A DNA stretch of 46,788 nucleotides from a virus. Taxonomy: Duplodnaviria; Heunggongvirae; Uroviricota; Caudoviricetes. Below, piece by piece: positions 1 through 37,569 of the stretch. The translations under genes and the position numbers were made by a program. Below the pieces are notes generated by a model. It was not told where the DNA came from. It saw nothing but the letters and a program-made list of their open reading frames with translations, and searched no databases. Location of the stretch: the IMG/VR virus record IMGVR_UViG_2896607866_000013; one strand, written 5' to 3'. How positions within the stretch are numbered: the first letter of the stretch is position 1; each line of letters opens with the position of its first letter.

Positions 1-585
1 TTACTCCCTGACAGGGTTCGTAGGCCACTCAATATCAGGTGCAGTTGATGTATCAACACGGTTCAGCAACACCCGATACTTTTTCCAGGCTTCCAGCAAT
101 GAGGTTTCTTCCTCCGTTGCAATTTCCAGATCTGCAGCATCCTGAAGCGGCGCAATATGCTCACTGGCTACCTGCATCAGGTTGTTTTTTGTTTCTTCCG
201 CCTCCCGGATCCGGAACAGTTTTTCTGCTTCCGTATCCTTCACCCAGGCTGTGCCGTTCCACTTCTGAAACTCCCCTTCCGGCGATAACCAGGTAACATT
301 TTCCGGTAACGGACCGAGTTCAGAAATAAATAACGCGTCGCCGGAAGCCACGTCATAAACCGTTTTACCCCGATGGTCTTCAAAGAGATGCCACGATGAC
401 TCATCACTGTTGAAAACAGCCACGAAGCCTGCCGGAATATCTAACGGTGCAATATCGGTACTGTTTGCAGGCAGACCTGTATGAGGCGGAATATATGCGT
501 CACCTTCACCAATAAATTCATTAGTTCCGGCCAGCAGATTATAAATTTTTATGGTCCGTGGTTGTTCACTCATTCTGAATGCCAT
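1..585 (-). CDS. tfa: Tail fiber assembly protein (lambda Tfa-like)
   Basis: 194-aa [23 protein letters not shown]...; closely matches recalled lambda Tfa; ATG at 585 overlaps stf stop (ATGA). Confidence 0.85.
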
Positions 586-22925: not shown

Positions 22926-23119
22926 TGTAGTCCGGTTTCTTCCACCATCGCACCGGACAGGCGACTATGAGGGGACAACGCCGCGCTCCGTTAACGCGGT
23001 AAACCCCGGTGTGTATCGTTTTTGATTATCCCCGCACACTCGCGCAGAGGAGTCTCCCGGTCGGGCTGCGGTCTCTGTTAATGCGGGGATACGGCGACAA
23101 TACCGCGCATCAGCAAAAC

Positions 23120-23587
23120 TTATTTCAGGCACTGAGTGCGGATATATTCCTGCGCCACTTCCAGCTGCTTCTGCATCAGCATCAACCGCTCTCTGAGAGT
23201 GAAATAATCCCGTTCAGCGGTGTCTGCCAGTCGGGGGCCGGTTGCATTATCCACGCCGGAGGTGGTGGGGGCTTCACGCACGGTACCGGGGCAGGTGGCG
23301 TTGATCCGCAGGCGCTTACGACCAGCGGCAACGTCAGCGCGCAGAGTTTCATTTTCAGCTCTCGCATCGGCTAATTCCCTCGAGTATCTGGCATCAAGTG
23401 CAGCAACATCACGCTGGCGCTGCTGCATATCAGTAATGGTTGCATTTGCCTGCTCCAGCTCACTGACTTTTTTATCGCGCTGCTCTTTGTAGGTTATGGC
23501 GTTATCACGGTAATGATTCAGCCCCAGACTAAGCGCACCACAGGCCACCAGCAGGGCAATGATGACCACGCACAGTACGCGGTTCAT
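23120..23587 (-). CDS. Rz: Rz i-spanin
   Basis: 155 aa, N-terminal TM segment, coiled-coil periplasmic domain; lambda Rz-like. Confidence 0.85.
   Translation of the reverse strand: MNRVLCVVIIALLVACGALSLGLNHYRDNAITYKEQRDKKVSELEQANATITDMQQRQRDVAALDARYSRELADARAENETLRADVAAGRKRLRINATCPGTVREAPTTSGVDNATGPRLADTAERDYFTLRERLMLMQKQLEVAQEYIRTQCLK
23182..23367 (-). CDS. Rz1: Rz1 o-spanin lipoprotein (embedded in Rz, +1 frame)
   Basis: 61 aa with lipobox ...LVVSAC and proline-rich CVKPPPPPAWIMQP motif as in lambda Rz1. Confidence 0.8.
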   Translation of the reverse strand: MRELKMKLCALTLPLVVSACGSTPPAPVPCVKPPPPPAWIMQPAPDWQTPLNGIISLSESG

Positions 23588-23588
23588 T

Positions 23589-23687
23589 TCACCACCAGCG
23601 TATCTGACCGATGAAATAACCGGAGGCCATAATCACAAACACCAGCCAGATAAGAATGAACTTCCAGGTGGATAATTTTTCAGCCAT
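23589..23687 (-). CDS. Candidate small membrane peptide (32 aa) between endolysin and Rz
   Basis: ATG at 23687 with GGGAGA SD; MAEKLSTWKFILIWLVFVIMASGYFIGQIRWW; its TGA stop lies 1 nt before the Rz ATG. Confidence 0.35.
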   Translation of the reverse strand: MAEKLSTWKFILIWLVFVIMASGYFIGQIRWW

Positions 23688-23762
23688 CACTCGAATCTCC
23701 CGAATCAGTTTGCTAAAATCAAACACACTTTCTCCTTTGACTTTTCCAGAGTCAGGAAACAC

Positions 23763-23800
23763 AAAACCCCGCTTGCAGCCAACAAACGGGGTTTTTACTT
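23763..23800. terminator. Bidirectional terminator-like hairpin between endolysin and the small ORF
   Basis: AAAACCCCG...CGGGGTTTTT; T-runs on both strands. Confidence 0.35.
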
Positions 23801-23885
23801 TTATTCACTTAGTTTTTGTCAGTTCGCAGGATTTCGTGTTATCCGTCCGTGTGAGCAAACCGCATTTTTCAGCAAAATATTCTGC

Positions 23886-24419
23886 TTATCTGTCGATACC
23901 CCAGCACGCCAGCGCACTTTCCTGGTCTCGCCGGGATACCTGACCGTAGCAATTATTTGAGCGGATACGGCAGTCTCTGCCACCGTCCTTAATCCACCAG
24001 CGAATCGCTTCGCATGCTCCCCTGCGGTCACCAGCATTAATCCGTCTGTAAAACGTCGACGGGAAACACTTACCGGGGCCAATGTTATAGGGACAAAATG
24101 ACGCGATACCCGCTTTCTGGGGTTCGGTCAGCGGCACTTTAATATTGCGCTCCACCCATGCCAGCGCCTTATCACGCTCAATGGCGTTGACCTGGTCGCA
24201 TTTTTCCTTCGACAACTTCATGCCCGGGACGACAGGTTTACTATCCACCAGGATGGCACCGCGGCAGATGGTCCAGATACCCGCGCCATCACGGTATGCC
24301 GTGGTGTGGTTACCTTCCTTTTCATCCAGAAACTGGTCGAGGATTTCAGGCGCAGGCGCACCTGCGGCAATCAGCGCCAGAACGGCAGCCGACAGGCCGT
24401 ATTTGATTTTGGTGTTCAT
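23886..24419 (-). CDS. R: SAR endolysin (phage lysozyme, R21/RrrQ-like)
   Basis: 177 aa; N-terminal SAR-like hydrophobic segment GLSAAVLALIAAGA; lysozyme-like core. Confidence 0.8.
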   Translation of the reverse strand: MNTKIKYGLSAAVLALIAAGAPAPEILDQFLDEKEGNHTTAYRDGAGIWTICRGAILVDSKPVVPGMKLSKEKCDQVNAIERDKALAWVERNIKVPLTEPQKAGIASFCPYNIGPGKCFPSTFYRRINAGDRRGACEAIRWWIKDGGRDCRIRSNNCYGQVSRRDQESALACWGIDR

Positions 24420-24469: not shown

Positions 24470-24814
24470 TCAGGCCAGCGGTGGAGTCTTCAGAGAACCA
24501 GTAATTATTCCCGGTAGTTTTCCTCTGTAGGTTATCAACACATCCTGCGCCTCTAAAATTACGGGGCGCTTTTCCGGCAACGGACCATCCCCTTCACATA
24601 ACCCGGCAGCAACATCCATGAAAAACTGCTTCGCCTGCTTTTTCGCCTCAGCTTCGTAAAACTCCAGCGTGGCATCTTCAGTACGGTCAAGACTAATCGC
24701 CACATCTGGCAACAACAGTGACGGATACCCACCAATTTCCAGTGCCACAGTAACAGTAATCTTATTCGGGTAATTATTTATCCCTTTAACAACCAGTTCG
24801 TATTTTTTCTTCAT
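24470..24814 (-). CDS. Hypothetical protein between holin and endolysin (YdfR/DUF1327-like by position)
   Basis: 114-aa ORF, no TM segment; same position as ydfR between essQ and rrrQ in the K-12 Qin prophage (recalled). Confidence 0.45.
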   Translation of the reverse strand: MKKKYELVVKGINNYPNKITVTVALEIGGYPSLLLPDVAISLDRTEDATLEFYEAEAKKQAKQFFMDVAAGLCEGDGPLPEKRPVILEAQDVLITYRGKLPGIITGSLKTPPLA

Positions 24815-24818
24815 CGCT

Positions 24819-25034
24819 TTACTCTCCCCGCGCCGCCTTACGACGGTCCTCTCTGATTTTGAAATACAGGTTAGTCAGATATGTCAGCAGCCCAAACAGC
24901 AGACTCCCCAGCACGCCTATTGCCGCCCACTGAGACGGGGAAACCCTGTCCAGCAACTGCAGGAACCAGTAGCCCGTTCCCACCGCTGACGTGGTGTATG
25001 ACACACCTGTTGTGATTTTTTCCATCTGGTACAT
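24819..25034 (-). CDS. S: Class II holin (S21-like pinholin)
   Basis: 71 aa from ATG 25034 (GGGAGA SD); ...[52 protein letters not shown] matches phage 21 S; second in-frame ATG at 25025. Confidence 0.85.
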
Positions 25035-25066: not shown

Positions 25067-25100
25067 AATAAAAAAAGCCACCAGTTAAGTACTGATGGCT
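25067..25100 (-). terminator. Intrinsic terminator between nanS-p-like gene and holin
   Basis: AGCCACCAG-loop-CTGATGGCT followed by U-run on - strand. Confidence 0.45.
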
Positions 25101-25184
25101 CTGATAACTCATGCAGGCGTCTCAGACGACCCACTGACACTACCGGTGAGTTTAACGATACCTTCCATTTGACTGGCTCACTTT

Positions 25185-27038
25185 TTATGATGATGCCGGT
25201 GCATTTATCTCCAGCACCAGACTTTCTATCTCAACGCCATACGCTGCATTTTTTGTAACATCCGTCAGCGTCAACGCATTCAGTCCCAGTGTCAGACTGT
25301 CTTTTATGACCTGGAATGCCGGGCCAGCCACTCCATTCAGTTTCGGAGTAACCGTGGCACTGCCGGCGGTGAACACCAGCTCCAGCGTCTGCCAGTCGTT
25401 ACTGTAATTCCCGAACTCGCCCAACTTTGTGTTTCCGGCTTTCTTGTGATGCATCAGATTCAGTTTGCCGTCTGTGGTCTGGGTGAAGAACGACATCAGG
25501 AACGGGTTACCAGTCCCGGTCATCGCCACGACGTCAGGTAACGCTACATCGGTATACAGATAAATTCCCAGACCGAACTGGTTGTTGGTCAGTGCGCCTG
25601 ACAGTCGAAACTTACAGCTCAGTCTGCCACCCCGTGTCAGCAGGGAGACTGCGTCATCCACCGGATGCATCAGGGACCAGGTTTTATTGCTCTGCTTGGC
25701 GATCTTAAATACACCACCCGACAACTGAATTCCGCCGTCCTTAATGGTCCAGCCCTGCGCAGCAGCCTCTCCGGCTGTCGGCAGCAGGGAGATTGTGCGT
25801 ACGGATGCATCTTCAGGCGGCCCCGATGGCGTGTCGCCGCCGGGCGAGGGTTTGATTTCCGGTGCCTTACCACTGATGAAGGCTGAGGTGCGCCCGGCTG
25901 CGTTCAGAATAGCGGTTGCCATACGATCCGGAATAATGCTCCTGCGCGCCCATGAACTGAAATGTGTCGGGCGGTTTGATGATACCTGGTTTCCATTCGT
26001 TCTCGATGCCGCACCGTAATATCCTGATGCCGGAATATCCGGATCTTCTGCCGGCGCGTTAGTGGCGGTATTGACGCCGTTACCGTCTGTCATGAAGGGC
26101 ACAAAATAAACGCCCTCACTCTCCCTGTTTTTGTACGCCCCGTAAATGGTGTTGTACTGCGTGCCGTAGGTGTTTTTCCAGTAATACGTCGTGTCACCAC
26201 AAATCCACGGCACATTTACAGCACTGCCACCATGACACTGCGCGTTAAACACAGTGAGGTCAGCACGAAACTGCTTCAGCATGGCTGTAAACAGCGCAGG
26301 TTGCTGTGCGTAGGTGGCGGCGCTCATGTCAAACTCTCCCTGCATCCAGCACACCGCCAGCAACACATTTTTCGGGTTCTTCTGTAATGCAGCTTTAGTG
26401 CGCGCAATCAGGTCCTGATATAACGGTTTACCCACACCCCAGCGCGCCGAATCCTGGCTGGCCCCCGCGTCCGCACTGAATGTCCCCTCCGCGCCCTGGG
26501 TGAATGCCGAACCACCACGACAGCATGGTACCAGCAGGATCCCCGCGTTATTCGGGATATACGGGAGCAGTTTTTTGGCAATATGTAAGCCCTGGCCGAC
26601 ACAGCCGTACTGCCCTTTGCTCAGGTCTGCCTTCGGATGATTCAGCGTACTCATATCCTGCACATCATGCAGACAGTGGTCAGCCGGGATGATGTCGTTA
26701 TACGTACAACTCTCTCCACCCGGAGTTACCGTGCTGCGGCGCGCCAGCTGTTTAATGCGCGGATCCGGAGCATCGTAAGAATCCGGTAACGGAAGCCCTT
26801 CACCGTAGGCCATGCCGTTGGACTGTCCGGCAAGCACAACCACGTAGAACCAGTCCGGCTCAGATGAAGGGCCGACCTGTGGATCTCCTTCAATAGCCAC
26901 CGCCTGCATCAGTGTGTACGGCGTAATGGCAACCGGTCCGCCATATGGCTGCCAGCCCTCTTTCAGTTTGTGTGTCAGCTTTTCCGCAAGGTCTGACGGC
27001 GACGCCGCCCTGACAACATCATAGTGTTTAAATGCCAT
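25185..27038 (-). CDS. Prophage sialate O-acetylesterase (NanS-p-like, SGNH/DUF303 hydrolase)
   Basis: 617 aa; GQSNG catalytic-Ser motif near N-terminus; same position (downstream of Q-tRNA region, upstream of lysis genes) as the large esterase ORF of Stx phages. Confidence 0.7.
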   Translation of the reverse strand: MAFKHYDVVRAASPSDLAEKLTHKLKEGWQPYGGPVAITPYTLMQAVAIEGDPQVGPSSEPDWFYVVVLAGQSNGMAYGEGLPLPDSYDAPDPRIKQLARRSTVTPGGESCTYNDIIPADHCLHDVQDMSTLNHPKADLSKGQYGCVGQGLHIAKKLLPYIPNNAGILLVPCCRGGSAFTQGAEGTFSADAGASQDSARWGVGKPLYQDLIARTKAALQKNPKNVLLAVCWMQGEFDMSAATYAQQPALFTAMLKQFRADLTVFNAQCHGGSAVNVPWICGDTTYYWKNTYGTQYNTIYGAYKNRESEGVYFVPFMTDGNGVNTATNAPAEDPDIPASGYYGAASRTNGNQVSSNRPTHFSSWARRSIIPDRMATAILNAAGRTSAFISGKAPEIKPSPGGDTPSGPPEDASVRTISLLPTAGEAAAQGWTIKDGGIQLSGGVFKIAKQSNKTWSLMHPVDDAVSLLTRGGRLSCKFRLSGALTNNQFGLGIYLYTDVALPDVVAMTGTGNPFLMSFFTQTTDGKLNLMHHKKAGNTKLGEFGNYSNDWQTLELVFTAGSATVTPKLNGVAGPAFQVIKDSLTLGLNALTLTDVTKNAAYGVEIESLVLEINAPASS

Positions 27039-27260: not shown

Positions 27261-27487
27261 GTCCATAAGAAAGCCCCTCCGGAGAGGGGCTGGAGAGTGG
27301 CGCTATGTGCCATTGCATGGTGCCGGGTGCCTCCCGGTGAATTCAGTACCAGCACCTGAATCCGCGATTATCCCATATACCTACTCGCTGATTGCCCCTC
27401 CGCACAGGGGGATTCACCATGCCAGTTTCTTTTAACAAACTCCCCGCAAAACAGACAACTGTCAACCGTCTGAATTGTGAGACATTT

Positions 27488-27512
27488 AAAAAAAGGCCCG
27501 CAAAAGCGAGCC
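27488..27512 (-). terminator. Intrinsic terminator downstream of tRNA cluster
   Basis: GGCUCGC-UUUU-GCGGGCC hairpin followed by UUUUUUU on - strand. Confidence 0.5.
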
Positions 27513-27526
27513 GGGAAAAATAAGTC

Positions 27527-27603
27527 TGGCGCGTTGTACTGGATTCGAACCAGTGACCGATTGCTTAGAAGGCAATTGCTCTGTCCGGCTGAGCTAACAA
27601 CGC
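27527..27603 (-). tRNA. argO: tRNA-Arg (anticodon UCU)
   Basis: 77 nt; 7-bp acceptor stem GCGTTGT/ACAACGC, anticodon loop CTTCTAA, TTCGAAT T-loop, CCA end. Confidence 0.85.
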
Positions 27604-27616
27604 AGGGTACAGATAA

Positions 27617-27693
27617 TGGACCGCCATCGAGGACTCGAACCCCGCGCAACCAGCTTCGAAGGCTGGCGCTCTATCCCGATGAGCTAATGGCGG
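27617..27693 (-). tRNA. argN: tRNA-Arg (anticodon UCG)
   Basis: 77 nt; acceptor CCGCCAT/ATGGCGG, anticodon loop CTTCGAA, TTCGAGT T-loop, CCA end. Confidence 0.75.
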
Positions 27694-27702
27694 TATGTGA
27701 TA

Positions 27703-27778
27703 TGGTGGCCCTTGCTGGATTTGAACCAGCGACCTGGCGATTATGAGTCGCTCGCTCTCACCACTGAGCTAAAGGGCC
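27703..27778 (-). tRNA. ileZ: tRNA with CAU anticodon (Ile2/ileX-like, or Met)
   Basis: 76 nt GGCCCTTTAGCTCAGTGG...ACTCATAATCG...GGGCCACCA; close to recalled E. coli ileX; ileZ-argN-argO order as in Stx-type phages. Confidence 0.8.
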
Positions 27779-35552: not shown

Positions 35553-36421
35553 TTACGCCCCCTTACCTCTGAAGGGTTCAGCGACAAATTTATGAGGCAG
35601 GCCAGTGCCGAAGCATCATTAATATAGTCATACAAGCTAACAGCCAGCGGAGATTCGGCTTTTGCCAACATAGGATAAAGCTGCTGCAGCCAGACCTGAT
35701 GAATTGATGAAATGTAGGAATAGAGAACGCTGGCGTTATGTGCAACATCGCTCAGTACAGAGGGATTTGAAAGCTGTTTCTCCATCTGGTTAAAGGCATT
35801 GATGTATGCCTCTTTGAACTGGGCAGCACGTTTACCCGTGAAGCCCATGGCAAGAAACGCAAAACCGTCGCGGGTGATTTGGTAACAAGGGAGTTTGCGG
35901 CCTGATGCGTCGGTGTATTCACTTAACACAAAATTGTGTTCAGTAAATTCAGCGGAACATTCGAGGTTTCTAATTCTATCTAAAACCCGCTCATGCCGTT
36001 TAGTAAAGTAATTAGCTACTGCAAGAGATGTGGTGACAACGCGACCATTGATAATCGTGATTTCAGGGTGAGATTGGGTTGGGAGAGTAGTCATGGTGAC
36101 AGCCCCTATGTTGAATTCAATGAACTCACCACCAAGGCTTTCCACGACCATATAGGTGGTGAGACGTACAGGGGTGGAAATACCGGTCAACATAGAACCC
36201 GGCCCAACCGAAGTTGGCCCTGCACGCCCCACCATAATTTGGGCGTAACGATGCTCATGACACGAAAAAACCGCATGAGCGCGGTTGTGCTCTATATTGA
36301 ATTTCGGGTTTCCACGCCCGGCACCCGCTTTATAAGGTGCCTGAACAGTGTAACGTCCCGGAATGGCAGAATCAATGTGCTGGTGGCGATTGGTAAACAG
36401 TTTGAAAATATTCCGGATCAT
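35549..36421 (-). CDS. Rha-family phage regulatory protein (copy 1 of tandem pair)
   Basis: 290 aa; C-terminal half has Rha signature VTTSLAVANYF.KRH..VL..IR.LE...GRKLPCYQITRDGFAFLAMGFTGKRAA.FKEAYINAFNQMEK. Confidence 0.65.
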   Translation of the reverse strand: MIRNIFKLFTNRHQHIDSAIPGRYTVQAPYKAGAGRGNPKFNIEHNRAHAVFSCHEHRYAQIMVGRAGPTSVGPGSMLTGISTPVRLTTYMVVESLGGEFIEFNIGAVTMTTLPTQSHPEITIINGRVVTTSLAVANYFTKRHERVLDRIRNLECSAEFTEHNFVLSEYTDASGRKLPCYQITRDGFAFLAMGFTGKRAAQFKEAYINAFNQMEKQLSNPSVLSDVAHNASVLYSYISSIHQVWLQQLYPMLAKAESPLAVSLYDYINDASALACLINLSLNPSEVRGRK

Positions 36422-37569
36422 TTACGCCCCCTTACCTCTGAAGGATTCAGCGACAAATTTATGAGGCAGGCCAGCGCCGAAGCATCATTAATATAGTCAT
36501 ACAAGCTAACAGCCAGCGGAGATTCGGCTTTTGCCAACATGGGATAAAGCTGCTGCAGCCAGACCTTGTGGATTACCGACAGGTGGGAGTAAAGCACGCT
36601 GGCGTTATCTGCGGCATCGCTCAGCGTGGATGGCTTTGAAAGCAGTTTTTCCATCTGGTTAAAGGCATTTATGTATGCCTCTTTGAACCGGGCAGCACGT
36701 TTACCAGTGAAGCCCATAGCAAGGAACGCGAAGCCATCGCGGGTGATTTGATAGCAAGGTAGTTTGCGGCCTGTGCAATCGGTGTAATCACTCACCGAAA
36801 AATTGCGGGCAGTGAATGATGCGGAGCATTCAAGCGTGCGGATCTTTTTCAGTACATCGTCATGACGTTTGGAGAAGAAGTTGGCAACAGCTAGGGATGA
36901 AGTAACAGCCTGACCATCAACGATGGCAATTTCAGGTTGAGTGAGGGTTGGGAGAGTAGTCATAGTGACAGCCCCGGTAGTCAGTTTTTTAGAAAACTCA
37001 CCACATGGGACGCCAATCACAGAGGTGGTGAGACGTACAGGGTTGGCGTTACCGGAGACTACCGAACCCGGCCCGACCGAAGTCGGCCCTGTACGCCCCA
37101 CCATAATTTGGGCGTAGCAATGCTCATGACACGAAAAAACCGCATGAGCGCGGTTATGCTCAGTAATCAATTTCAGGACGCCAATCCCGGCACCCGCTTT
37201 ATAAGGTGCCTGAACAGTGTAACGTCCCGGAATGGCAGAATCAATGTGCTGGTGGTCCTTCACACTCAACAAAATCACGCCTGAATTTCCACAAAGGACT
37301 AAAGCACTCATGCTGGTAGTCTTTGCGAAGATAGATAACGCGCTGTGTTTCTGGCTCCCAACGAATAACATGGACATAAAGCCCTCTTCCGTCACGAAAC
37401 CAGCGGTTAAGTTCCTGCACAACTCGCCCCCCACAGTCAGGTAAAGTTCTCTGTGGTTACTTACAGCCAGGTGATCTGGTAATCTGCATTCATGCCGTAA
37501 CAACAGGTGTTCAGCGACACTGACCACCAGCTGTTGCGACAAACGGTTATTTGCCGTTAAACTGTTCAT
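36418..37569 (-). CDS. Rha-family phage regulatory protein (copy 2, with unique ~93-aa N-terminal extension)
   Basis: 383 aa; C-terminal 290 aa paralogous to copy 1 (~870-bp tandem DNA repeat); ATG immediately after the CII-like stop. Confidence 0.6.
   Translation of the reverse strand: MNSLTANNRLSQQLVVSVAEHLLLRHECRLPDHLAVSNHRELYLTVGGELCRNLTAGFVTEEGFMSMLFVGSQKHSALSIFAKTTSMSALVLCGNSGVILLSVKDHQHIDSAIPGRYTVQAPYKAGAGIGVLKLITEHNRAHAVFSCHEHCYAQIMVGRTGPTSVGPGSVVSGNANPVRLTTSVIGVPCGEFSKKLTTGAVTMTTLPTLTQPEIAIVDGQAVTSSLAVANFFSKRHDDVLKKIRTLECSASFTARNFSVSDYTDCTGRKLPCYQITRDGFAFLAMGFTGKRAARFKEAYINAFNQMEKLLSKPSTLSDAADNASVLYSHLSVIHKVWLQQLYPMLAKAESPLAVSLYDYINDASALACLINLSLNPSEVRGRK

Follow-up and report, generated by a model that had tools for sequence, protein, structure and literature searches.

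A mobile late-operon cassette at the endolysin–Rz junction of a lambdoid prophage carries a conserved small membrane-protein gene and a candidate antisense promoter

Introduction

What is the small open reading frame (ORF) between the endolysin gene and the spanin gene Rz of a lambdoid prophage, and does it belong to the lysis machinery that surrounds it? The DNA analyzed here is a stretch of 46,788 nucleotides from a virus of the Caudoviricetes (IMG/VR record IMGVR_UViG_2896607866_000013), hereafter the window. Its minus strand carries a phage-21-type lysis cassette in which the endolysin ORF ends at 23886 and Rz starts with the ATG at 23587, leaving a gap of 298 nt. In the Qin prophage of Escherichia coli K-12, rrrQ overlaps rzpQ without a gap and the element described here is absent from the junction; the gap content of the window thus represents an insertion. 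A sequence-only reading of the window, which gave the gap correctly as about 300 bp, had described in it an unannotated 32-codon membrane-peptide ORF as part of the lysis cassette, coupled to Rz and resembling type I toxins or small lysis regulators. By comparing homologous loci, we show that the ORF is a real coding gene under selection whose conserved form has 45 residues, that it resides in a mobile cassette that joins tightly to whatever gene follows and is not lysis-specific, and that an antisense -10 element and two RNA stems are conserved within this cassette.

Results

A conserved 45-residue gene in the gap

The small gene and its junction with Rz comprise the following features.

23589–23726, minus strand: small gene of 45 residues, VFDFSKLIREIRVMAEKLSTWKFILIWLVFVIMASGYFIGQIRWW; GTG start at 23726–23724, TGA stop at 23591–23589
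23589–23687, minus strand: internal 32-codon ORF, MAEKLSTWKFILIWLVFVIMASGYFIGQIRWW; ATG at 23687–23685, TGA at 23591–23589
23732–23737, minus strand: Shine–Dalgarno (SD) sequence AAGGAG, 5 nt upstream of the GTG start
23585–23597, minus strand: junction TGGTGGTGA-A-ATG, consisting of Trp-Trp-stop of the small gene, one nucleotide (23588) and the Rz start

The 32-codon ORF is the C-terminal two thirds of the 45-residue gene and begins at its internal Met14. Its coordinates, with the stop 1 nt before the Rz ATG, had been read correctly, and it has a good SD of its own as proposed (GGGAG, 23701–23697, 9 nt upstream of the ATG). Its extent needs revision: the 13 upstream codons from GTG 23726, which had been omitted, form the best-conserved part of the protein. 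The open frame itself continues upstream to 23762.

Does selection act on this frame? Substitutions were counted by the Nei–Gojobori method (NG86) over the 30 codons from ATG 23687, with the two other frames as controls, using relatives' DNA from E. fergusonii, Yersinia, Brenneria, Pantoea, Symbiopectobacterium, Azoarcus and unassigned metagenome or sequencing-run contigs. The proportion of differing sites is 0.5–0.97 for synonymous sites (pS) and 0–0.33 for nonsynonymous sites (pN), giving ratios of nonsynonymous to synonymous divergence (dN/dS) of ~0.03–0.24, and the control frames give ratios of 0.5–7. Two of the collected loci (numbered here with the prefix L), L012 and L014, differ by 11 synonymous and 0 nonsynonymous changes in the ORF, the frequent ORF polymorphisms among E. 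coli alleles are synonymous, and the same frame is kept with near-saturated synonymous change out to Azoarcus. The frame is intact in 247 of the 249 fetched loci with enough flank, a fraction that is biased upwards by tblastn selection of the set. Conservation as a protein, which the sequence-only reading had named as the check that could overturn it, is what the comparison yields, with heavy variation at synonymous sites and retention of the amino acids. A chance open frame in a conserved non-coding spacer of the R–Rz moron site would fit the lack of annotation of the ORF in most genome records, and 32-codon ORFs are common by chance (4.5 kb hold 69 ORFs of at least 20 residues). However, the codon-periodic substitutions, the conserved SD and start codon and the protein identity of 36–50% across phages of beta- and gamma-proteobacteria make this explanation very improbable.

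In the enteric copies, the 13 codons from GTG 23726 to the ATG show a synonymous divergence of 0–0.21, compared with 0.5–0.97 downstream. Such low divergence indicates nucleotide-level constraint, and dN/dS therefore cannot settle the translation of these codons. Three other observations argue that the product is likely to be the 45-residue protein from GTG 23726 and not a 32-residue peptide. In a family alignment of 21 diverse members, the N-terminal motif x(D/H/Y)(F/I/L)SK(L/I)(I/L)(R/K)E(L/I/V)RxM-xE(K/R)L(P/S)xW(K/R)F is the best-conserved segment; family member P0063 has no internal Met; and ATG replaces the GTG start in L267, L268, L269 and L272. The distance from AAGGAG to the start codon, whether GTG, TTG or ATG, is the same in nearly all cassettes (those of Azoarcus, L267 and L269 among them), and phiSTEC1589 (L261) has lost the motif. 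A second, shorter product from the internal ATG 23687 is possible, given that GGGAG and this ATG are kept in all enteric copies and that Azoarcus has AAGGA and an ATG.

The single transmembrane (TM) helix proposed earlier is supported by hydropathy and spans residues 24–42 of the long form (Kyte–Doolittle mean 2.13). The N-terminal segment is amphipathic with a net charge of +2, its hydrophobic moment exceeds that of 98% of shuffles, and the C-terminus is RWW. The positive-inside rule predicts an N-in, tail-anchored topology. PHROG 6632 matches the protein with E=1.4e-29, profile positions 1–45 of 45 aligning with residues 13–57 of the extended ORF, and, like the database entry WP_000459345.1, it represents the same protein as the 45-residue form of the window, with no function attached and no mention of the cassette structure or of an antisense element. 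No family match for the peptide was obtained in Pfam, NCBIfam or PADLOC, including the described type I toxin families sought there (Hok, Ldr, Ibs, TisB, ShoB, Zor and others), and no holin family in Pfam or PHROG matches it.

The gene resides in a mobile cassette

How far does the conserved unit extend beyond the gene? When unrelated loci are aligned, similarity starts ~10 nt before a hairpin and stops at the stop codon of the small ORF. The unit thus delimited measures ~215 bp (~23589–23812, minus strand, in the window) and consists, in order, of the hairpin, ~25 nt with a small stem-loop (SL1) abutting the SD, AAGGAG, the start codon and the small tail-anchored ORF. It occurs in Escherichia, Salmonella phages, Yersinia, Pantoea, Brenneria and Azoarcus.

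The genes around the cassette differ from locus to locus. In the window, it follows an R21-type endolysin. In E. fergusonii L004, it follows a GH19 endolysin and ends 1 nt before a DUF2514-type spanin; in the myovirus contig L008, it follows a PG_binding_1 endolysin; and in Salmonella phage SPN3UB, it lies between the endolysin and Rz. In SEN34, Rac-SA53 and a Pantoea prophage, the cassette is located between the gpV baseplate spike gene and the next baseplate gene, and the gpV context recurs in L013. A Yersinia prophage carries it in a similar-looking baseplate cluster whose flanking genes have no Pfam match, L272 carries it after a lambda-K-like tail gene, Azoarcus L015 carries it between a T7 gp14-like protein (below the Pfam threshold) and an SLT-domain protein, and L269 carries it among ParE/RelB/HicB genes. 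The cassette is therefore not a component of the lysis cassette as such, contrary to the initial description.

In almost every case, the stop of the small ORF lies 1–16 nt from the start of the next gene, and (I/V)(R/K)WW-stop closes different small ORFs at this distance in L004, L008, L013, L253, L254, L255, L262, L267 and L268. The juxtaposition with Rz is thus real, and the pattern TGGTGGTGA-A-ATG occurs only once in the window; coupling specifically to Rz does not hold, because the cassette adjoins baseplate, tail, internal-virion and toxin-antitoxin (TA) genes in the same way, which makes coupling to the next gene generic. An SD for Rz within TGGTGGTGA was considered and set aside, the spacing being too short to argue for it, and coupling alone is claimed.

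The cassette also forms tandem arrays, with two units in L004, three in L268 and two in L272. The three units of L268 (1930–2600) lie on a GC-rich phage contig near an SU10-type adaptor gene, and each has the hairpin, SL1, the SD and a TM ORF of 45–49 residues ending in (A/V)IRWW-stop. In L269 (1400–2700), the cassette lies within a direct repeat of ~400 bp with ParE/RelB-type TA genes on its flanks. The copies of the repeat each carry a near-consensus sigma-70 promoter (TTTACA-N17-TATCAT) as well as a leader that contains a terminator, located upstream of the hairpin; this could be an autonomous form of the element that has a sense promoter of its own. The distant member P0063 (L264, 2501–2650) has SIR2 and WYL genes nearby and no obvious phage operon around it.

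The leader and SD are shared by different proteins. In PhiR5_2, GER2, L269 and L272, the common leader precedes different small TM proteins, several of which end in (I/V)(R/K)WW-stop. Tail-anchored ORFs behind this leader include L252 1584–1766, L262 1008–1160, L269 2703–2879 and L272 988–1170, with sequences such as MEKYKRILL..., VRKYKRFF...AIRWW, LFKYTPKY...AIRWW and MNDRRFTF.... Other inserts also occupy the lambdoid R–Rz site, namely an antirepressor gene with a 48-residue peptide in the Sakai prophages Sp6, Sp9 and Sp15 and other small ORFs in PhiR5_2 and GER2. The peptide of the former insert belongs to a second small TM family just upstream of Rz in other lambdoids (MSDKLITLAKILCVIVGISF...), which often follows an antirepressor gene and is found at L256 1327–1473 (Sp9), L258 987–1133 (Sp6), L259 2749–2895 (Sp15), L252 1781–1912 and L261 1119–1250; the 48-residue members in Sakai are ECs_5722/5713/5741. 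The N-terminus of this second family, M-S-D-K-L-I-T-L, loosely resembles MAEKLSTW of the window peptide.

The leader contains two conserved stems and a candidate antisense promoter

The following elements were located in the leader and the first codons of the small gene.

23763–23795: G+C-rich hairpin with an A-tract and a U-tract on both sides, the bidirectional terminator-like 5' border of the cassette (terminator scan)
23733–23757: stem-loop SL1, a small element that follows the hairpin and overlaps the SD (RNAalifold and pair counts)
23711–23719, plus strand: predicted antisense extended -10 element TGCTAAAAT, the reverse complement of GAT TTT AGC A in sense codons 3–6
23725–23802, plus strand: predicted cis-antisense small RNA (sRNA) of ~75 nt, from the -10 element and the terminator

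The hairpin, already noted as bidirectional and terminator-like, was flagged by the terminator scan, shows compensatory changes in 5 of 11 stem pairs and is present in all phage-borne cassettes. Taking both stems together, 90.6% of cells are paired and 6 of the 16 pairs show compensatory changes, values reached by 0–1 of 500 shuffles. The position of SL1 is kept with a different sequence in L269, L271 and L272, and the U-tract of the hairpin is conserved on the antisense side. An integron attC-like identity of the hairpin was rejected, as no R'/R'' core sites are visible.

The TGCTAAAAT site is the only extended -10 motif common to all 300-nt modules, and it always lies on the antisense strand at the same position. 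TGnTAnnnT occurs at this fixed position in codons 3–7 at 18 of 21 family loci, in the variants TGCTAAAAT, TGCTAATAT, TGCTAATGT, TGCTAAGAT, TGCTAGAAT and TGATAAAAT; two further loci have TAAAAT without the TG. The codon for Ser5 is AGC at all 17 loci with Ser, and other codons have drifted to saturation. Among the enteric copies, it is only in this stretch that the synonymous rate is depressed. In Azoarcus, Ser5 is replaced by Ile (ATC), yet the TG and the hexamer are kept (TGATAAAAT). Unrelated ORFs behind the same leader likewise have a -10 hexamer with five of six matches (TATACT or TATCAT), antisense and at the same distance from the start codon. These features suggest that the cassette probably specifies a cis-antisense RNA over the SD and start codon of its own gene.

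The predicted RNA has an unpaired 5' end, ACACUUUCUCC, complementary to the start codon and the SD, and continues through SL1 and an A-rich linker into the terminator hairpin and a U tail; its predicted folding energy is -21.9 kcal/mol (z = -4.1). Covariance model R1 scores 85 bits at the site, its sole high-scoring match in the window (the next, at 31 bits, is the same hairpin in reverse reading), and also matches the same position in divergent cassettes left out of its building. A search of Rfam at gathering and permissive thresholds returned nothing in the gap; the best match by E-value is a rimP-leader-like terminator below threshold.

On the sense strand, a generic promoter scan found no sigma-70 match between R and the ORF, and a sense promoter with the conserved CCTTGA as its -35 was dismissed for want of a -10 at the right distance. 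The same scan gave a plus-strand promoter-like site at 23604–23633, which was set aside after comparison with the locus alignment, where the other copies do not keep its -10.

Distribution and annotation

Of 5426 complete E. coli genomes, 2189 are matched by a 551-nt probe that spans the gap, as are 232 phage records; 869 of the 5426 (~1 in 6) cover at least 80% of the probe at a single place and so carry the entire endolysin–cassette–Rz stretch undivided. With the 224-bp cassette alone as the query, 58 phage records match, including Stx1a-, Stx2a- and Stx2c-converting phages, H-19B and several Salmonella phages. The protein family is small, with 37 clusters at 90% identity among 5.8 billion proteins and 41 representatives in a profile search of 1.84 billion proteins.

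The ORF had been called unannotated, which is true of most records, where the gap is empty; a few call a 45-residue hypothetical protein or a longer ORF. The Prokaryotic Genome Annotation Pipeline (PGAP) does call the gene in some E. coli, and in L001 the identical 45-codon ORF (WP_000459345.1, hypothetical protein) is placed 1 nt before Rz; PHROG 6632 also contains it. A survey of lysis cassettes in phages encoding Shiga toxin (Stx) does not mention the ORF (PMC8136144). The protein is thus already in databases as hypothetical, and to our knowledge the architecture, mobility, arrays and embedded antisense promoter of the cassette are undescribed, no mention of them having been found in the literature searched.

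Neighbouring genes and other features of the window

The genes of the lysis region that accompany the small gene are as follows.

24819–25034, minus strand: S21-like pinholin (PF04971)
24470–24814, minus strand: YdfR/DUF1327 protein
23886–24419, minus strand: endolysin of the signal-anchor-release (SAR) type, lysozyme family (Phage_lysozyme; Pfam PF00959, E=2.8e-24)
23120–23587, minus strand: i-spanin Rz, directly downstream of the small ORF (Pfam PF03245, E=8e-49)
23182–23367, minus strand: o-spanin Rz1, embedded in Rz (Pfam PF06085, E=8e-21)

Other regulatory RNA-like features lie in the window. Just downstream of Rz, at ~22970–23070 on the plus strand, the window is homologous to the Sakai Sp9 region with EcOnc12, and a prophage sRNA likely adjoins the cassette-bearing locus here. 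EcOnc12, of the EcOnc10/11/12 family, is an abundant Hfq-bound peak antisense to the late operon, ~75 nt after Rz (Tree 2014 Table S2, PMC4104026). A terminator-like hairpin at 25074–25102 (minus strand) separates a 617-residue ORF (25185–27038) from the pinholin start; sRNAs of the PasA/PasC type occupy the equivalent esterase|holin gap in other prophages, and the PasA and PasC probes do not match at 25074–25102. Upstream of the 617-residue ORF, the STnc100 sRNA and three tRNA genes (27261–27778, minus strand) form a layout of the Stx-phage type; no stx genes were seen in the window. Two tandem pairs of C4 antisense RNA and isrK (Rfam RF01695 and RF01394) lie ~870 bp apart at 36152–36340 and 37021–37209 (minus strand), and the start of the window has an IS009 RNA match (44–242, minus strand).

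Discussion

How would a promoterless mini-cassette with an antisense -10 element work? We favour a late-expressed, type I TA-like membrane peptide with a cis-antisense RNA, carried in a mobile cassette, and hold this reading to be slightly less probable than not, though the likeliest of those considered. In this reading, a compact mobile cassette is inserted between the endolysin and Rz of a lambdoid prophage and encodes a 45-residue tail-anchored inner-membrane protein, whose amphipathic helix would face the cytoplasm and be followed by one TM helix and by RWW in the periplasm. As no sense promoter is seen, expression would depend on phage late transcription that continues through the 5' hairpin into the gene, and the stop abutting the start of the next gene would leave the host operon uninterrupted. 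From the antisense -10 in codons 3–7, the ~75-nt RNA would be transcribed in the opposite direction across the start codon, SD and SL1 as far as the hairpin, where it would end. In the lysogen, translation of the peptide would be prevented by the hairpin together with the antisense RNA, and once late transcription floods the cell the peptide would be made, following the logic of a type I TA pair. Read-through of the hairpin suits the Q-antiterminated lambdoid operons and is less obvious for the baseplate contexts. From this arrangement, we infer that the antisense RNA may be made and repress translation, that the peptide may be membrane-active or toxic and that its expression may be restricted to the late phase.

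The likeness to type I toxins suggested by the sequence-only reading is thereby sustained by the conserved antisense extended -10 and terminator, and falls short in that the gene has neither its own toxin promoter nor a place in a described family; it is nonetheless the best-supported mechanism, tentative though it is. Several observations weigh against it. A classical type I toxin is transcribed from a promoter of its own, and its conserved part is the TM segment rather than a cytoplasmic helix. In the cassette protein, the N-terminal helix is the best-conserved part, which points to a specific partner and not to a generic pore; its conservation in beta- and gamma-proteobacteria would predict a host partner that is itself conserved. 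The -35 is poor (TCGAAT or TCGCAA, 3/6), and for this reason the antisense site is not flagged by the generic promoter scan. L264, outside a phage context, has neither the antisense -10 nor the hairpin. The AU-rich 5' codons could partly result from selection for an open mRNA at the start, which leaves AGC unexplained. By folding energy, 34 of 41 variants form the more stable structure on the sense strand; neither folding energy nor G–U pairs decided the strand of function. The published list of Hfq peaks from CRAC (cross-linking followed by cDNA analysis) in enterohemorrhagic E. coli (EHEC) contains no peak in the R–Rz gap, but the three Sakai prophages checked, Sp6, Sp9 and Sp15, carry an antirepressor gene and a different 48-residue peptide here, so that the Sakai data cannot test the predicted RNA. 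The list from RIL-seq (ligation and sequencing of interacting RNAs) in enteropathogenic E. coli (EPEC) contains no RNA at such a site (PMC8550237).

Could the gene simply encode an accessory small membrane protein that belongs to the late operon, no antisense RNA being made at all? The hairpin would then be an intra-operon attenuator or an mRNA-stabilizing stem, the constraint on the first codons would reflect translation initiation (an open AU-rich start and an SL1/SD switch), and the cytoplasmic helix would act on a host or phage partner, for example in lysis tuning, envelope processes or superinfection exclusion. This account agrees with the strong coding signal, the conservation peak in the N-terminal helix, a hairpin that folds at least as well on the sense strand, the weak antisense -35 and the absence of an sRNA at this place from the published EHEC and EPEC lists. 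It accommodates less well the use of AGC for Ser5 in 17 of 17 loci, although AGT, TCA and TCT are equally or more AU-rich, or the TG of TGn that survives the amino-acid change in Azoarcus (ATC, giving TGATAAAAT). The 5/6 hexamer at equal distance from the start codon in unrelated ORFs behind the leader and the conserved antisense-side U-tract of the hairpin also speak against it, and we consider it unlikely, though the strongest of the alternatives.

Less probable again is that selection on the non-coding part mainly favours a trans-acting sRNA of the Hfq type, akin to the prophage RNAs PasA/PasB/PasC or EcOnc; this sRNA would be expressed in the lysogen and regulate host or phage mRNAs through a CU-rich 5' end, the protein being a separate cargo and not an RNA-controlled toxin. 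The predicted layout is typical of Hfq-dependent sRNAs (single-stranded 5' end, stem, A-rich ARN-like linker, Rho-independent terminator and U tail), validated Pas sRNAs hold analogous antisense positions in late-operon gaps, and PhiR5_2 and GER2 have the shared leader with a different ORF. However, the 5' region exactly complements the SD and start of its own cassette and varies along with them between cassettes, and no seed is conserved beyond the anti-SD. In addition, similarity to the PasA and PasC probes and an Rfam family are both lacking, and in every case a small TM ORF accompanies the predicted RNA, physically joined to it.

How does the cassette relate to described systems? With the type I TA systems hok/sok, ldr/rdl, zor/orz and ibs/sib, it shares a hydrophobic single-TM peptide of fewer than 60 residues (45 here), a short, here predicted, cis-antisense RNA that is transcribed from within the 5' part of the peptide gene and spans the translation-initiation region, tandem duplication of units and a prophage location, L269 lying next to other TA genes. 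It differs from them in having no similarity to described toxin families in Pfam or NCBIfam, in being operon-embedded and coupled without a sense promoter of its own, and in conserving the cytoplasmic amphipathic helix and not the TM segment. A type I TA system of Stx phage Sp5, hokW-sokW, aids phage release (PMC8621323).

PasA, PasB and PasC are validated Hfq-dependent sRNAs of 79–85 nt that are oriented antisense to lambdoid late operons and occupy gaps within them (PMC8550237 Table S6). The Pas and EcOnc sRNAs (Pearl Mizrahi 2021, PMC8550237; Tree 2014, PMC4104026) resemble the predicted cassette RNA in their length of ~80 nt, their antisense orientation, their location in short late-gene gaps of lambdoid prophages and their termination at a bidirectional hairpin that closely follows the preceding gene. 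Sequences and gaps are different (esterase/holin for PasA and PasC, tail I/J for PasB), and the Pas sRNAs are experimentally validated with trans targets, whereas the cassette RNA is predicted and tied to a conserved protein gene. At the PasB locus of E2348/69 (L263 1462–1544), PasB lies antisense between tail genes I and J, has its end at the hairpin directly following gene I and overlaps a 22-codon ORF (MKINVKELFLLLGQKNTNAAKL) at the start of that ORF, a layout that parallels the cassette. Known prophage sRNAs were rejected as the RNA of the gap. PasA–D of EPEC belong to different loci and sequences, the PasA and PasC probes being absent from the window and PasB unrelated, and AsxR, AgvB and the EcOnc RNAs are located elsewhere, EcOnc10–12 just downstream of Rz and EcOnc33 within the 3' end of the esterase gene.

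Like the morons lambda bor/lom and HK97 gp15, the cassette is an insert between genes adjacent in related phages, with a terminator-like flank and a small membrane protein. A classical moron is expressed from the prophage and brings a sense promoter of its own along with a 3' terminator, whereas in the cassette the hairpin is on the 5' side, the scan gave no sense promoter and the ORF is coupled to the downstream gene. The cassette is therefore a moron by insertion pattern and not by expression architecture. Small lysis proteins such as the S21 pinholin/antiholin, Mu releasin and phiKT disruptin are similar in being small membrane proteins amid a pinholin and a SAR endolysin, and the two in-frame starts of the cassette gene (GTG 23726 and ATG 23687) recall dual-start holins. 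The cassette protein has no holin homology, has a single TM helix in a predicted N-in, tail-anchored form and is found no less often outside lysis cassettes than within them. It is not bound to the company of an endolysin gene, since baseplate, tail and internal-virion operons carry the cassette without an adjacent endolysin. As far as the compared sequences go, the small protein is not a holin by homology or linkage.

Might the cassette stand for a wider class? We raise, as a doubtful extension, that promoterless, translationally coupled mini-cassettes would form a new class of portable, operon-embedded type I TA-like elements with interchangeable peptide cargos. Members of such a class would combine a hairpin–SL1–SD leader and a built-in antisense promoter with a variable tail-anchored peptide that often ends in I-R-W-W-stop. 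They would sit singly or in tandem between late-operon genes of unrelated sipho-, myo- and podoviruses of beta- and gamma-proteobacteria, and their cargos would include family A (that of the window), 'SDKLITL', 'KYKR' and other peptides behind the same leader.

The cassette is frequent in E. coli and in many Stx1a, Stx2a and Stx2c phages, yet it is mostly unannotated. It places one short DNA stretch under three overlapping constraints, those of protein, antisense promoter and RNA structure, and it supplies a defined set of interchangeable small membrane proteins. If the type I TA-like reading is true, Stx phages and many other temperate phages would hold in their late operons a silent membrane peptide guarded by a cis-antisense RNA, and this peptide could influence lysis timing, toxin release, lysogen fitness or abortive outcomes.

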